Shown here piece after piece: positions 48-22,810 of a stretch of DNA of 64,000 bases. Under the pieces are notes generated by a model that saw only the letters and a list, made by a program, of their open reading frames with translations, had not been told where the DNA came from and made no database searches. Position 1 is the stretch's first letter. Each line of letters starts with the position of its first letter. The stretch is from an uncultured delta proteobacterium (GTDB taxonomy: Bacteria; Desulfobacterota; Desulfobacteria; Desulfobacterales; JAFDCJ01): assembly GCA_963774425.1 (NCBI GenBank), contig CAVZEZ010000020.1, forward strand, positions 29,555 through 93,554. Direction: 5' to 3'. The position numbers were made by a program, and so were the translations under genes.

Positions 48-71
48 ATATATGAACATATGTGCATATAT
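48..71. promoter_or_regulatory. ArsR/SmtB-type operator palindrome overlapping the promoter of the arsR-like gene
   Basis: ATATATGAACAT|ATGTGCATATAT is a 24-bp inverted repeat with 1 mismatch. TTGACG lies at 26-31 and TATAAT at 44-49, just upstream of an ArsR-family gene. Confidence 0.75.
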
Positions 72-84
72 AGGGGATTAAAAT

Positions 85-459
85 ATGTCGGAAGCCAAAG
101 CCAGACAGATTGATGCAGATGGATGCCGCAAGCGGGTGATACATCTTGACCGTGTTGAACGCGCCCGGAAGGAAGTGGCCTCAGACGGGGATACGGAACG
201 GCTGTCCTCTATTTTCCGGGGGCTGGGAGATCCGACCCGACTCAAAATAGTAATGGCGCTAAAAAACGTCGAAATGTGTGTGTGCGATCTGGGAGTATTT
301 ATCGGTTTGAGCGAATCGGCCGTGTCCCACCAATTGCGGCGGCTTAAAGATCTGGCGTTGGTCAAAAGCCGTCGTGACGGTCAAATCGTTTATTATTCCC
401 TGGATGATGAGCACGTCACGGCATTGCTGGAGATGGGTTTGGAACATGTGAGGGAATGA
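85..459 (+). CDS. ArsR/SmtB (CadC-like) metal-sensing transcriptional repressor
   Basis: Motifs LGDPTRLKI, EMCVCDL, SESAVSHQLRRL and RRDGQIVYYSLDDEHV are typical of the family. Confidence 0.93.
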   Translation: MSEAKARQIDADGCRKRVIHLDRVERARKEVASDGDTERLSSIFRGLGDPTRLKIVMALKNVEMCVCDLGVFIGLSESAVSHQLRRLKDLALVKSRRDGQIVYYSLDDEHVTALLEMGLEHVRE

Positions 460-548
460 TTGCGAGTTTTTTTTGCTCGTGAATGCGAGGCCCTGTCGGC
501 CGGATTCCGGTTCAGGCAGATTCTATTTTTTTTTCGGGAGGACATATC

Positions 549-1679
549 TTGAATTTTGCGATAAACGTTTGTATGGAATCCTGGCGCCTGCTGCTCGAGG
601 CAGCCCCATATATTATCTTCGGCCTGGCGGTCAGCGGCCTGCTGAGGGTTTTTCTCAATCCGGGTGCGGTTGTGCGCCATCTGGGCCGCGGCCGGTTTTC
701 CTCGGTGTTCAAGGCCGCCTTTCTGGGCATTCCAATACCATTGTGATCGTGCGGCGTTCTGCCCGCAGCCGTGTCGCTGCGCAAACAAGGCGCCACCAAA
801 GGCGCAACCACCGCTTTTTTGATTTCAACGCCGGAGTCCGGCGTCGATTCCATTTCCATCACTTATGCCCTGTTGGATCCTGTCATGACGGTGGCACGGC
901 CGGTTGCGGCCTTTTTCACAGCCGCGGCGGCGGGGGTCGCCGAAAATATCTTCAACCGCGACGAAAAGATTTCGCAAATCGCACCGGATTTAAGCTGTCC
1001 GGTAGACGGCTGCTGCAGCGGCGTTGATTGCGATCCGGCCCAACACAGCCGCCACCACACGTTGCCCGAAAAACTCAAAGCCGGATTCGGCTATGCATTT
1101 GGCGAGTTATGGGAAGATATCGCAAAATGGTTTCTTTTCGGGCTGTTGCTGGCCGGCTTGATTACGGTATTGATCCCGGACGATATCTTCAGCCGATATC
1201 TTGCAGGGGGTTTGCCGTCTATGATGCTGATGTTGATCATCGGGATCCCATGGTATATATGTGCCACCGCCTCGACTCCCATCGCTGCGGCACTGATATT
1301 GAAAGGCGTCAGCCCGGGGACGGCTCTGGTGTTCTTGTTGGCGGGTCCGGCCACGAATATGGCATCCCTGACGGTACTGACCGGTCATTTGGGCAAGCGC
1401 GCGACGGCCATCTATCTGACTTCCATCGCGATATGCAGTGTCCTTTTCGGTTTGCTGGTGGATCAAGTTTATTTGCAGTGGGGGATTTCGGCCCGGGCGA
1501 TGGCAGGCCAGGCTTCCGAAGTGTTGCCGGTGTGGTTGCACTGGGGAGCTTCTTTGCTGGTGTTGCTTTTTTCGTTCAGAACTCTGTATACCCGGCTCGC
1601 CGCATTTTTCAGGACCGCCACCCCGCCGCAAACCGCCGCCGAACCCATTGCGGATACGCCAAGCTGCGGTTCGACATGA
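549..1679 (+). CDS. SO_0444/DUF318-family metal efflux permease, selenoprotein (UGA 744-746 = Sec); may extend to 1691 through a second UGA
   Basis: ORFs 483..746 and 771..1679 are in the same frame, joined by GIPIPL-UGA-SCGVLPAA where the family has PLCSCG. GGAGG RBS precedes TTG at 549. Also ISTPESGVDSI, IPWYICATASTP, FLLAGPATN and a Cys/His-rich loop. Confidence 0.88.
756..786 (+). other. Candidate bacterial SECIS hairpin for UGA 744-746
   Basis: Stem CGCAGC(764-769)/GCTGCG(776-781) with loop CGTGTC. G is at loop position 2 and the loop starts 23 nt after the UGA. Confidence 0.55.
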
Positions 1680-1691
1680 GGATGTTCCTGA

Positions 1692-1706
1692 GAACCGGTC
1701 GGGTTC
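1692..1706 (+). other. Candidate SECIS hairpin for UGA 1677-1679
   Basis: GAACC-GGTCG-GGTTC: a G-starting loop 18 nt after UGA 1677-1679. Confidence 0.4.
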
Positions 1707-17678: not shown

Positions 17679-18005
17679 TGCAAATCCCCATTCGAACGCG
17701 TCTCCTTTCCTTCCAGTACGCGTATTATTTTCATACGAGCCAGATTGAGCGATCGCTGGTGGTGCCGCAATTTTCAGCTATGATTCAGCCTTGACATATT
17801 TTCGGTTTAGGAATAAAAATTACTTAGTTTGACAGTTTACAACACCATTAGCGGTTCTATGGTCTCATAATAAGTATCTTTAATCTCTTCCGCGTCGCCG
17901 GAATCACTTGCCAGCAGCCTCTCGAGCCCTGCAGCCGTCAATGTGCCTTGTCATTCAATCTCATTCATTTCGGTAAGGAACCAAATTAACGAAGGAGGAG
18001 ACCTT

Positions 18006-21000
18006 ATGAAGGTTAATCGACGGCAGTTTATCCAGATCAGCGGTGCGGCGGCGGCCGGCTTTTCAGCCGGTAGCCTGGGTTTTGACCTGGGTCCGGTCAA
18101 AGCCCATGCCCAAATGCTCAAAACCGCTTATGCCAAAGAAACCAACACCATCTGCTGCTATTGTGCGGTGGGCTGCGGTGCCATCGTCCATACCAGCAAA
18201 AAAGGCGACGGACGGGTCATCAATATCGAAGGCGATCCGGACCACGTGATCAACCGGGGGGCGCTGTGTTCCAAGGGTGCGGGGTTGGCTCAGCTGGTGG
18301 AAAATGACCAGCGGGTCACCGAACCGATGTATCGGGCACCCTATTCAAAACAATGGCGGAAAGTGTCCTGGGACTGGGCGCTGGGAGAAATCGCCAAGCG
18401 CGTCAAAACCACTCGGGATGCCACGTTCGAGACCACCAATGCCAAGGGGCAGGTCGTCAACCGCACCGGTGGCATCGCCTCGGTCGGCAGCGCCGCCCTG
18501 GACAATGAGGAGTGCTGGATATACCAGGCATTGATGAGAACCGTGGGATTAACCTATATCGAGCACCAGGCTCGTATTTGACACAGCGCCACAGTTGCGG
18601 CTCTGGCAGAGTCGTTCGGACGCGGCGCGATGACCAATCACTGGATCGATATCAAAAACAGTGACTGCATATTGATTATGGGCAGCAATGCTGCCGAAAA
18701 CCACCCGATTTCCTTCATTTACGTTACCGAGGCCCAGCGCAGGGGCGCCAAACTGATCAGCGTAGACCCGCGTTTCACCCGGACCTCGTCCAAAGCCGAT
18801 ATCTATGCGCCCATCCGCTCCGGTGCGGATATCGCGTTTTTAGGCGGTATGATCAAATATATTCTGGAAGACAATCTCTATCACCGGGACTATGTGGCCA
18901 ATTATACCAATGCCGGCTTTATCGTTAATGACTCGTTTGGCTTCAGCGACGGATTGTTTGCCGGTTATGATCCCAAGACCCGCAGCTACGATAAGAGCCG
19001 CTGGGCCTTTGAAACGAATGCCGCGGGCGTGCCCAAAATGGACCCCACCCTGCAACACAAACGCAGCGTGTTCCAGCTGCTTAAAAACCACTTTTCGCGT
19101 TATAACACCAAGGTGGTGAGTGAAATCACCGGAACGCCGGAAAAAGATCTGCTTGAAATCTACCGCACCTATGCGGCCACCGGTGTGTCGGGCAAGGCAG
19201 GCACGATCATGTATGCCATGGGCTGGACCCAGCATACCGTCGGGGTTCAGAACATCCGGACCATGGCCATCATCCAGATGCTTCTGGGGAACATGGGAGT
19301 GGCCGGCGGTGGCGTCAATGCCCTGCGCGGAGAATCCAATGTGCAGGGATCCACCGACCACTGCCTGCTGTGGCACATCTGGCCCGGCTATCTGCAAACT
19401 CCCCGGGCATCCAAAACTTCGCTGGCAACTTACAACGAATCATCCACTCCCAAAAGCAACGATCCGCTCAGCGCCAACTGGTGGCAGAACTATCCGAAGT
19501 ATTCGGTCAGTTTACTGAAATCGTTTTTCGGCGACAAGGCAACCGCTGCCAACGAATTCGGCTACCAATGGCTGCCCAAAGTGGACGACGGGAAAGACTA
19601 TTCCTGGTTGTCGCTGTTTGATGAGATGTACAACGGAACCTTTAAGGGATTTTTTGCCTGGGGTCAGAATCCGGCTTGCAGCGGCGCCAATGCCGGTAAA
19701 AACCGCCAGGCCCTGGCCAAGCTCGACTGGATGGTCAACGTCAACATCTTCGATAATGAGACCGGGTCCTTCTGGGAAGGCCCGGGGATGGATCCCTCCG
19801 CAGTTAAAACCGAAGTGTTCTTTTTGCCGGCGGCGGTTTCGGTGGAAAAGGAGGGCAGCATTACCAATAGCGGGCGCTGGATGCAGTGGCGCTACCCGGG
19901 CCCCGCACCGATGGGCAATAGTTTGCCTGACGGTCAGATGATCGTGGAACTGGGCGACCGGATCAAGGCCGAATATGAAAAGGACGGCACGTTTCCGGAA
20001 CCGATTGTCAATCTGAAGTGGGACTACGTGACCGGCGGGGAGTATGATCCTCACAAAGTTGCCAGGGAAATCAACGGCTACTTTCAAGAGGATGTCACCA
20101 TCAAGGATCAGACCTACAAGAAAGGCACCCTGGTTCCCAGCTTCGCCTATTTGCAGGCGGATGGTTCGACCTCATCGGGCAACTGGCTCTATTGCAACAG
20201 TTACACCGAAAAGGGCAACATGGCGGCCCGCCGCAGCCAGAAGGATGCTCCCAACAACATCGGGCTGTATCCGGAATTTGCCTGGTGCTGGCCGGTGAAT
20301 CGACGCATCCTTTACAATCGCGCTTCGGTGGATCTCCAAGGCCGACCCTGGAACAAGGAACAGCCCGTCATTCAATTCGCCGGCGAGGTCAAGGACGGCA
20401 AGTATGTTTCGAACAAGTGGCTGGGGGATGTGCCGGACGGCGGATGGTATCCCTTGCAGAATCCCGACGGCTCCCCGCGCACCGATGCCAAATATCCTTT
20501 TATCATGCGCAAACACGGCCACGCCCAGATTTTCGGCCCGGGCCGGGCGGACGGCCCTTTTCCCGAGCATTACGAACCGCTGGAATGTCCCATCGAAAAA
20601 AATCTGCTCAGCAGCCAGCGCATGAACCCGACCGCACCGGTCTATGGAAGCCAGGCGGACGAATGGGCCTCCTGTGACCCGCGCTATCCATACGTGGCGT
20701 CGACCTATCGGGTCGTAGAACACTGGCAAACAGGGGTGATGACCCGCTGGCAGCCCTGGCTTCTGGAGTTGCAGCCCCAGGTATTTGTGGAGATGAGCGA
20801 AGAACTGGCCAAATTGAAGGGATTTAAAAACGGGCAACGCGTTAAAGTCTCATCGCCGCGGGGGGCGCTCGAAGCGACGGCGATTGTCACCAAGCGTCTG
20901 CAGCCGTTTAACATTGGCGGAGCCATCGTGCACCAGGTCGGATTGCCGTGGCATTACGGTTGGCGCATGCCCGCCAACGGTCGGGAGGAAAGCGCCAACC

Positions 21001-21080
21001 TGTTGACTCCGGCCGCGGGCGATCCCAACACGCGTATTCCCGAAACCAAGGCCTTTATGGTGAATGTAAGCAAAATATAG
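18006..21080 (+). CDS. fdnG: Formate dehydrogenase alpha subunit, Tat-exported selenoprotein (UGA 18579-18581)
   Basis: RRQF Tat motif, CCYCAVGC FeS motif and HQARI-UGA-HSATVAALAESFGRGAMTNHW. The two ORFs are in frame. Confidence 0.96.
18597..18615 (+). other. SECIS element of FDH alpha
   Basis: GCGGCTCT-GGC-AGAGTCGT hairpin, with the loop 24 nt after the UGA. Confidence 0.8.
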
Positions 21081-21089
21081 AAGGAGGTG

Positions 21090-21812
21090 ATGGCGATGAG
21101 CAAATCTTTTTTAATTGATACTACCGTATGCACGGCCTGCAAGGGCTGCCAGGTAGCCTGCAAGCAATGGCATGATCTGCCGGCCGAAAAAACCGTCAAT
21201 CATGGATCTTACCAGAACCCAGCCGATCTGTCCTTCGACACTTATAAACTGGTGCGCATGCGCGAAGAGGTCATCGACGACAAGCTGAGATGGTTGTTTT
21301 TCCCGGATCAATGCCGCCATTGTCTGGAGCCTCCCTGCGAAGCCACCGCCGGAGATCCGGCCGCCATATTCATCGAGGAAACCGGCGCCGTCATTTACAC
21401 GGCCAACACCAGACGCCTTGACCCCGTCGAAATCCGGGAATCCTGTCCGTATGACATTCCCCGTGCCAATGAGGGCGGGGTCCTGGCCAAATGCGATATG
21501 TGCAACGACCGGGTGGAAAACGGACTGGAGCCGGCTTGCGTCAAGGTATGCCCGACCGGCGCCATGAACTTCGGTGAAAGGGAAGAAATTATCGAACTGG
21601 CCGCGCAGCGCCTGGCCCTGGCCAAAAAGAAGTTCCCCCAGGCCCGGCTGCTGGACCCTGAGGATGTCCGAGTCATTTTTTTAGTTGGATTCGACCCTCA
21701 ACACTACCATGATGCGGCGGTAGCATCCATTACCGGCAAAGGGATGACCCGGCAGGCCGCCCTCAGAAAGATGTATCGTCCTTTCCACCGGGCGTTGTCG
21801 TCTTTCAGCTGA
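21090..21812 (+). CDS. fdnH: Formate dehydrogenase beta (4Fe-4S dicluster) subunit
   Basis: CTACKGCQVAC, CRHCLEPPC and CDMCNDRV...PACVKVCP motifs. AAGGAGG RBS. Confidence 0.92.
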   Translation: MAMSKSFLIDTTVCTACKGCQVACKQWHDLPAEKTVNHGSYQNPADLSFDTYKLVRMREEVIDDKLRWLFFPDQCRHCLEPPCEATAGDPAAIFIEETGAVIYTANTRRLDPVEIRESCPYDIPRANEGGVLAKCDMCNDRVENGLEPACVKVCPTGAMNFGEREEIIELAAQRLALAKKKFPQARLLDPEDVRVIFLVGFDPQHYHDAAVASITGKGMTRQAALRKMYRPFHRALSSFS

Positions 21813-21892: not shown

Positions 21893-22810
21893 ATGCTAAT
21901 AGATCATAGAAAAGGTAAAGGAAGACGTGTTGCAACAAAATTTGACCTTACATCCGATCAGGTCAGAAGCGTGGTGGAAAGTGTCACAAAAACCAAACCG
22001 CATTATGCGGACATCCTGGGATTTTACGGCCGGCTATTCGTGGCCCAGGAAGAAAGCAAAAATCGCGTCCGGCTCGACCCTTACCCTATCCCGGACGATG
22101 TGCGCATCGCCAAAGCGGAGAAAAAGCGTCCTTTGATTGAAATCGAGGAATTCACCTATGACCGGGTGGAATCCGCCGATCTTTTCGTCGCCATTGCCGA
22201 GCTTGCCGGAACCGCAAACCCGCACCTGGCACGGTCTGCGGCTGTATTATTGGAGGCCGGGATTGTAAAATTGAAATCCGAAGCACTGTTCAGTGCTTTT
22301 TTAAATGGTGATGAAGCCTTTTTCGAGACCCTGGCAGAGGCGCATAAAATAGAGAAGCAAATTTTGGGGTTCATTACCTATAACAGCTTGAAGCCTTCCC
22401 TTTGCACGGGGGCCGCTCAACTTTCAGGCTTTTTGTCCGACAGCGATCCATGGCTGAAAGGGGATTGCCCGGTATGCGGCAGTGCCCCAACGCTTGCGAT
22501 TCTGGACGCTGATGGGGCGCGCAGTTTGGTCTGCGGCTTCTGTTGGCATATCTGGACGGTGAGAAGAGAAATGTGTCCTTATTGCGAACACCCGGGGCAA
22601 ACTGAACGGCATTATTTTTTCGATGAGAAGGAGAAAGAATTCCGAGTTTACCTGTGTGGCAATTGCAACAAATATCTCAAGACCATCGACGCACGGCAGG
22701 CGGATCGGATGATTTATCCGCCGCTGGAGCAGGTATTGACGCTGCATCTGGATTATAAAGCCCGTGAAGAAGGCTTTGAACCGGGCATCGCGCTTTCCGC
22801 GCTGCTTTGA
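21893..22810 (+). CDS. fdhE: Formate dehydrogenase accessory protein FdhE
   Basis: CPVCGS, CGFCW, CPYC and CGNCNKYLKTID motifs. Confidence 0.93.
   Translation: MLIDHRKGKGRRVATKFDLTSDQVRSVVESVTKTKPHYADILGFYGRLFVAQEESKNRVRLDPYPIPDDVRIAKAEKKRPLIEIEEFTYDRVESADLFVAIAELAGTANPHLARSAAVLLEAGIVKLKSEALFSAFLNGDEAFFETLAEAHKIEKQILGFITYNSLKPSLCTGAAQLSGFLSDSDPWLKGDCPVCGSAPTLAILDADGARSLVCGFCWHIWTVRREMCPYCEHPGQTERHYFFDEKEKEFRVYLCGNCNKYLKTIDARQADRMIYPPLEQVLTLHLDYKAREEGFEPGIALSALL

Follow-up and report, generated by a model that had tools for sequence, protein, structure and literature searches.

Near the start of a 64-kb stretch of DNA from an uncultured Desulfobacterales bacterium (contig CAVZEZ010000020.1; the whole stretch is called the window below), a gene for an ArsR/SmtB-type regulator is followed by a permease gene whose reading frame is interrupted by TGA. 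Translated from the TTG at position 549, with both internal TGAs taken as selenocysteine (Sec, U), the permease reads MNFAINV...GIPIPL-TGA(744-746)-SCGVLPAAV..., then runs uninterrupted to a second TGA near its 3' end, ...DTPSCGST-TGA(1677-1679)-GGA-TGT-TCC-TGA(1689-1691), so that the second Sec would stand four residues from the C-terminus. The features of the locus, including two hairpins of the selenocysteine insertion sequence (SECIS) type, are collected in Table 1. We regard it as highly probable that the two genes form one unit whose product is a single 380-residue permease with Sec at residues 66 and 377, working by the mechanism set out further below.

Table 1. Features of the arsR-permease locus, in positions of the window.
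Feature	Position	Strand	Basis or remarks
Candidate ArsR/SmtB operator, 24-bp palindrome ATATATGAACAT/ATGTGCATATAT	48..71	.	Just 5' of arsR
arsR, ArsR/SmtB-family metalloregulator, 124 aa	85..459	+	Pfam HTH_5, NCBIfam NF033788
Shine-Dalgarno-like GGGAGG	536..541	+	7 nt ahead of the TTG start; sequence reading
Permease coding sequence	549..1691	+	TTG start, 380 codons, predicted Sec66 and Sec377, SO_0444-family/ArsP_1
UGA for predicted Sec66, first position of the U-S-C transport motif	744..746	+	Cys column in homologues
SECIS-type hairpin 1, within the coding sequence	764..781	+	Stem CGCAGC/GCUGCG, loop CGUGUC
UGA for predicted Sec377, tail C-G-S-T-U-G-C-S	1677..1679	+	Comparison of relatives' 3' ends
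True stop TGA, abutting hairpin 2	1689..1691	+	Sequence and frame translation
SECIS-type hairpin 2, just 3' of the stop	1692..1706	+	Stem GAACC/GGUUC, loop GGUCG

The automatic gene call at this locus (P0001, 771-1679) is a 302-residue fragment cut at both ends of the permease, which is the kind of truncation that a first-pass annotation of the DNA had expected of annotation pipelines. The N-terminus that we use, MNFAINV from TTG 549, agrees with the MNFxxxx starts of full-length homologues, which are 374-400 residues long and 62-72% identical to the permease, and both TGA codons agree in contigs assembled from three other public runs. For scans with hidden Markov models (HMMs) each U of the read-through protein was replaced by C. 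The NCBIfam scan listed only NF033936 (SO_0444 family Cu/Zn efflux transporter), at 427.1 bits against a cut-off of 300, and SaoE, at 187 bits and below the cut-off of that model; Pfam PF03773 (ArsP_1) matched at 158 bits against a cut-off of 32.3. The match to NF033936 stops at residue 343, about 37 residues short of the C-terminus, leaving the tail outside the model. Two motif columns are invariant in the homologue alignment, PIPL-U-SCGVLP at residues 62-72 and WYICATASTP at 235-244, and conservation extends to a central loop rich in Cys and His, CPVDGCCDGxDCPPExHxxHH, as well as to the tail. The permease would thus be a metal-efflux transporter of the SO_0444 family (ArsP_1/DUF318). That family owes its Cu/Zn name to fitness data from Shewanella loihica, in which a DUF318 gene adjoining zntR matters under zinc stress.

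Consistent with the first-pass annotation, which had placed UGA-744 at the first Cys of the family motif PLCSCG, this codon falls on a column that is Cys (C66) in every one of 34 full-length homologues, and past it the frame stays open for another 314 codons. Among 151 related loci that could be scored at this site, drawn from genomes and metagenomes, the codon is TGA in 57 and TGY in 94. Hairpin 1 starts 20 nt after the U of UGA-744 and its loop 26 nt after it; a possible lower stem would lengthen the hairpin to 753-794. Two sets can be told apart among the Sec forms by the hairpin that they carry. Throughout the window's set of 41 distinct sequences the hairpin is always CGCAGC-CGUGUC-GCUGCG, and third-position entropy at codons +7 to +11 is 0-0.4 bits, versus 1.9-2.0 bits in the 94 Cys forms and about 1-1.9 bits in the flanking codons of the same Sec forms. 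The synonymous sites of hairpin 1 are therefore frozen in Sec forms only, which argues for a constraint on the RNA that is present only together with the UGA. Such a constraint is what a SECIS element predicts, and the SECIS-like hairpin proposed behind the first UGA is a conserved one.

A Desulfobulbales-like set of loci (L032, L033, L040, L042, L045, L052, L058, L059, L062, L064, L065, L068 and L073) carries a different conserved hairpin after its USC UGA, GUGCUGCC-GGC-GGCAGCAU, and here it is codons +4 to +9 whose synonymous sites are frozen; either the hairpin has been remodelled in this second clade or the Sec of USC may have been gained twice.

Sec at this first site is already known from Haft and Gwadz (2022/2023) and from the NCBI listing. 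Haft and Gwadz describe CSC as 'occasionally replaced by ... USC in the SO_0444 family', the reference data of the NCBI prokaryotic genome annotation pipeline (PGAP) include USC, and a 2026 review lists the family with the motif UxC and one Sec. The earlier remark that Sec variants of DUF318 permeases had been reported therefore holds for the transport motif and does not extend to the tail.

At the protein level the tail of this family is mostly absent from databases: 118 full-length relatives include 84 that stop at C-x-x-[STPAG]-[T...], apparently truncated at the tail UGA, and only 4 that carry the tail onward, as C-x4-C-x-C.... At the DNA level, 52 distinct loci end in C-x(3-4) followed by TGA. 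In the strict class of loci this codon is TGA in 53 of 53; other tail types have TGA in 50 cases, TAA in 25 and TAG in 21. What follows the TGA in the 52 distinct loci is a conserved tripeptide, with Gly (31, using all four codons) or Glu (11) at codon +1, Cys (28 TGC, 22 TGT) at codon +2 and Ser (39 TCN, 5 AGY) at codon +3, before a true stop (TGA 24, TAA 21, TAG 7) at 12-51 nt past the Sec codon. The synonymous turnover in these G/E-C-S codons, switches between TCN and AGY included, points to selection on the peptide.

Orthologues with Cys in place of the tail Sec read straight through this position, with tails such as SPT-C-GCSS (P0018, P0057), GST-C-DCSS (P0092) and GPA-C-GCSS (P0117), and with pairs such as CSGPT-C-GCAPGP in locus L012 against CSGST-TGA-GCAPGP in L117. 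The cleanest such pair is L161 (...AGC CCC ACC TGA GGC TGC TCA TCC...) and L162 (...AGC CCC ACC TGC GGC TGC TCC TCC TGA), whose proteins are 85% identical. L162, the TGC form, keeps a hairpin, UGAUCGGUCCGAUCC, directly after its stop (1760-1800, compared with 1760-1800 of L161), and this retention suggests a recent single-base switch from Sec to Cys or from Cys to Sec. Both UGA positions of the window permease thus align with Cys in relatives, at the C66 column and in tails reading T-C-G-C-S-S, and the homologues do not simply come to an end at Ser-Thr, since a TGA, a conserved x-C-S and a phased hairpin follow. The tail UGA is present in two cultured organisms, Desulfosarcina variabilis str. 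Montpellier (L020, ...CSGST-TGA-GCSH) and strain NaphS2 (L008, ...CTSPT-TGA-GCS), and the NCBI-sourced protein of the latter stops at ...CTSPT. We conclude that, on comparative evidence, UGA-1677 is a real second Sec site, as had been proposed for the Cys-rich tail.

Hairpin 2 starts 15 nt, and its loop 20 nt, after the U of UGA-1677. A hairpin with an unbroken stem of 4 bp or more, beginning 13 to 18 nt from the U of the UGA, is found in 52 of the 53 strict loci and in 34 of the remaining 96, about ten of these being variant tail-Sec forms. It has loops such as GGUC, GGUCA, GUC and GGGC, and its stems vary from locus to locus (GGGUC/GACCC, GGACG/CGUCC, GAACC/GGUUC, GAAUCA/UGAUUC, UGAUC/GAUCA). 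With 18 of the sequences as its basis, a covariance model run over 755 kb gave 36 matches at E<0.05, all of them at permease 3' ends and on the permease (+) strand; within the window it gave a single match, at 1677-1716 with 39 bits. In an alignment fitted to the model, which favours structure though the raw sequences give the same picture, each of the five pairs has changed on both of its sides and pairing holds in 89.7% of cells, compared with 71% in the best slid register and 17-46% in the others, and the covariation score was reached by none of 500 shuffles. Of 51 loci, 39 have the loop beginning at +20 or +21, although their true stops range from +12 to +51. The significance of this constant distance with a moving stop is that hairpin 2 keeps in phase with the UGA, not with the end of the open reading frame (ORF). 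The second G-loop hairpin, first noticed for its suitable distance from UGA-1677, thus turns out to be both covarying and phased, and the comparative evidence for the two predicted hairpins is far beyond chance. A scan of the whole window with Rfam at gathering thresholds returned no match.

Variant tails also exist (L007, L087/L096, L104, L110, L119, L121, L136, L151, L152, L003/L106), in which a TGA with a GGUC-loop hairpin stands without the usual x-C-S; U-S-R-S-S and U-R-G-S-C are among them. Some of these loci may be frameshifted assemblies.

At least 26 strict-class loci, the window included, have TGA at both sites, and the nearest relatives of the window (L001, L002 and L081-L093, at 69-74% identity) are among them. 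Another 24 loci have Sec in the tail only, and loci with Sec only in USC also exist, so the two sites evolve independently; all four combinations of Cys and Sec are found in natural relatives.

That the organism decodes Sec is indicated by a canonical Sec-containing gene elsewhere in the window, the alpha subunit of a periplasmic formate dehydrogenase (FdhA) with a twin-arginine translocation (Tat) signal at 17943-21080 (+), whose Sec codon (TGA 18579-18581; HQARI-U-HSATVAALAESFGRGAMTNHW, that is, HQARI-U-HSATVA) breaks the gene into two ORFs. A 4Fe-4S subunit (21087-21812) and an FdhE-like gene (21893-22810) lie 3' of it.

The regulator matches HTH_5 (PF01022) at 52.7 bits (cut-off 22; 3.8e-14) and NF033788 at 91.9 bits (cut-off 55). 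Its metal-ligand motifs are Cys14 near the N-terminus, CVC in helix alpha-3 (EMCVCDL) and a C-terminal DxHx10HxxE, which we equate with the alpha-3N and alpha-5 sites that bind metal in CadC, SmtB, ZiaR and BxmR. Across loci the N-terminal Cys, EMCVCDL and DDxHVxxLLxxGLEHVRE, which fits DxHx10HxxE, are all conserved. The regulator resembles CadC, SmtB, ZiaR, BxmR and CzrA in its HTH_5 domain, in CVC with an N-terminal Cys and in DxHx10HxxE, and differs in that it reaches no equivalog cut-off. Identification as TsoR (48 bits, cut-off 115), CmtR (40, cut-off 150) or BigR (40, cut-off 155) was rejected on those scores.

The arsR gene lies directly 5' of the permease on the same strand in 103 of the 122 loci with enough upstream DNA. 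The palindrome before it in the window has 12-nt arms, 92% complementary and without a gap, and it recurs in most related loci as ATATnTGAAC-N4-GTTCAnATAT about 40 nt ahead of the arsR start; this TGAAC-N4-GTTC type of palindrome over the promoter is like the 12-2-12 operators of ArsR/SmtB repressors. The metal-sensing regulator predicted upstream is thus the usual partner of the permease and comes with a conserved candidate operator. A scan detected no separate promoter or terminator between the two genes, and this, together with the palindrome, makes an autoregulated, metal-derepressed two-gene operon the most likely arrangement.

The spacer between arsR and the permease is 90 nt in the window and ends in the GGGAGG of Table 1; at 460-548 it has two long T-runs (GAGTTTTTTTTGCTCG and TCTATTTTTTTTTCGGGAGG), with neither a terminator nor a promoter called by the scan. 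Spacers are longer, about 350-500 nt, in many close relatives (L081-L092 and similar loci). No convincing ORF is seen in that of L081 (2156-2500), and such a spacer might contain a regulatory RNA or else another promoter or operator. The neighbours of the permease are fdhD, obg, proB and proA; fdhD (1776-2576, -) is convergent to it, and the order arsR-permease-fdhD is found in L081 too.

Several observations weigh against our reading of the locus. In single sequences the folding energy is no better than that of shuffles for either hairpin (z = 0.39 for hairpin 1, z = 0.08 for hairpin 2), and Sec forms do not differ from Cys forms in how well the sequence behind the CSC codon folds (first 160 loci, Mann-Whitney p = 0.59). 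Since folding energy does not discriminate, the case rests on position-specific conservation and covariation. Tails without Cys after the U occur, namely U-G-S-A (L007), U-G-H (L110), U-N-T-Q (L119) and U-S-G-S-S (L152), so U-x-C is not universal and a Cys after the Sec would not be obligatory. Neither selA, selB nor selD was seen among the 20 window ORFs scanned, and ARAGORN found no tRNA, hence no selC, in the window. Simple hydropathy and positive-inside analysis gave no clean topology, and the structure model, which is the AF2 prediction for the all-Cys homologue P0018, is of moderate confidence, with a predicted local distance difference test score (pLDDT) of 71.6 and a disordered tail (residues 368-392, pLDDT below 50). 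Copper or zinc as the substrate is what the family name suggests. Finally, what comparison establishes is the two recoding sites, their hairpins and the pairing of the genes; that selenium is actually incorporated at these positions is inferred, as are the substrate, the regulation and the role and sidedness of the tail.

Selenolates favour soft metals and metalloids, and this counts for a reading in which both sites are Sec and the substrate is another one, whether an organoarsenical, arsenite (as for ArsP), mercury or a sulfur or selenium compound, with Sec serving that chemistry. The same reading gains from the Pfam placement in ArsP_1, from SaoE as second-best match, from the ArsR-type CVC motif of the regulator and from Haft and Gwadz, who connect related permeases with organometallic chemistry. 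The equivalog-level match, on the other hand, is to the Cu/Zn family, and no ars, mer or other resistance genes adjoin the permease, its neighbours being those listed above. The regulator has, moreover, the DxHx10HxxE site, typical of Zn sensors such as SmtB and CzrA. We consider a different substrate unlikely, although it is the alternative that fares best.

A much less probable account accepts Sec at UGA-744 only and takes TGA-1677 as a genuine stop, hairpin 2 then being an mRNA-stabilising or terminator stem-loop and the conservation of the next three codons an RNA-level effect or chance. The extension amounts to just three codons, the protein stops at ...GST in pipelines and databases, hairpin 2 lies in a 3' untranslated position, where terminators occur, and its folding energy, as noted, does not stand out from shuffles. 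A terminator was rejected, however, since a T-run follows the hairpin in none of 52 loci and the terminator scan of the window called none at 1692-1706. Nor does a genuine stop sit well with the exclusive use of TGA in the strict class, with codons +1 to +3 that vary synonymously (four Gly codons, TGC/TGT, TCN/AGY), with Cys-form orthologues that have TGC or TGT at the position and read on, or with a distance from hairpin to TGA that is kept across loci whose true stops lie anywhere between 12 and 51 nt. That the gene is a pseudogene, or its TGAs nonsense mutations or miscalled TGC/TGT, is scarcely credible, for although two in-frame stops in a single gene and a 302-residue automatic call would invite that view, the frame is otherwise intact and 62-74% identical to full-length homologues, both TGAs are found again in 26 or more loci that were assembled independently and in contigs from other runs, and the frozen synonymous sites and covariation show active selection.

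Under the double-Sec reading, each UGA would presumably be recoded by SelB acting on its own small G-rich-loop hairpin, and the TGA at 1689 would terminate translation rather than be recoded, because it lies too close to hairpin 2. Sec66 would replace the first Cys of the membrane-embedded C-S-C, and Sec377 would sit in a flexible tail, C-x3-U-x-C-S-COOH. The repressor is expected to bind the palindrome at 48-71 and to let go upon binding a thiophilic metal, which the permease would then export: copper or zinc going by the family name, with cadmium, mercury, silver or arsenic also possible. As the transport site and the tail share the motif [U/C]-x-C, the tail [U]-x-C is probably a swinging arm that picks up metal and delivers it to the site of transport, and a selenolate in the tail would speed ligand exchange. 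Another way to view the two sites is through their behaviour in selenium shortage, when a stop at UGA-1677 would still give a nearly complete permease and a stop at UGA-744 would leave a fragment of 65 residues.

For the fold we have leads only. An Arg/Lys-rich stretch lies between the last hydrophobic segment and the tail and weakly suggests that the tail is cytoplasmic. The CSC and ICATAS motifs stand at the starts of pseudo-symmetric helices. A Foldseek search of the P0018 model against the PDB gave nothing below E = 0.03, its best fold matches being weak (E about 0.03-0.5, template-modelling score about 0.3-0.4) and falling on elevator-type transporters with helical hairpins, namely TRAP SiaQM (the best, at a score of about 0.4), NaS1/VcINDY and CNT; as a lead, this hints that CSC and ICATAS might lie on re-entrant hairpins. 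The fold search found no solved structure of the SO_0444 permease family in the PDB.

The described selenoprotein form of the SO_0444 family (WP_014809615.1, Desulfomonile tiedjei) belongs to the same HMM family and has the same U-S-C for C-S-C. It differs in that it was described with one Sec (UxC), to which the window permease and many relatives add a second. In its tail the window permease is like a group of unrelated families, SaoC (Cys-Sec-COOH), KCU-star/DUF466, UXX-star, GUXX-star and UXPK-star, that have Sec within the last few residues beside a Cys, have links to metals or transporters and escape annotation pipelines; SaoC in particular has a G-loop SECIS after its stop (UGA-UAG, 13 nt, 7-bp stem, GGU loop). 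Those families are small soluble proteins or lipoproteins of unrelated sequence, whereas here the Sec is at the end of a polytopic permease, in a C-x3-4-U-x-C-S motif and in addition to an internal Sec. The NCBIfam scan listed none of them for the read-through protein, and as the tail by itself is too short for a search, its resemblance to them is architectural. The hand-off role proposed for the tail would have its analogues in the Gly-Cys-Sec-Gly arm of mammalian thioredoxin reductase and the C-terminal Cys pair of MerA, where a flexible arm with Sec or Cys beside a Cys shuttles electrons or metal to a buried site; these are soluble flavoenzymes without homology to the permease, and the eukaryotic SECIS differs.

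C-terminal Sec tails of these unrelated families are treated by Haft and Gwadz in 2023 and reportedly by Haft and Tolstoy in 2025. The site 1 Sec, the family, the type of regulator and the existence of such tails are known already. No report of a tail Sec in SO_0444 permeases was found in the accessible literature, a scope that does not take in Haft and Tolstoy 2025, and priority is uncertain; a literature search for reports of permease, YraQ or COG0701 selenoproteins found nothing further. According to the preprint of Haft and Gwadz, PGAP could not predict C-terminal Sec residues, and only two Sec-containing prokaryotic transporter families, of which SO_0444 is one, have been validated. We are evenly divided on the fullest form of the proposal, in which the tail is an unrecognised second Sec site that represents the majority state of Desulfobacterota SO_0444 permeases, is served by a minimal SECIS at or past the stop and provides a selenolate swinging arm feeding the transport site.

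Sec is rare in membrane transporters, and the interest of these findings is mainly for students of selenoproteins and metal transport. If the tail Sec is real, many public permease entries miss their last 4-15 residues, among them the one that probably counts most chemically, and a clear bacterial case of a SECIS at or past the stop codon, which the NCBI pipeline was said to be unable to deal with, would be added. The four U/C combinations found in nature would provide a natural system for what Sec adds to metal transport, and, with two cultured carriers of the tail UGA, they would make the share of selenium in metal capture and export directly testable.

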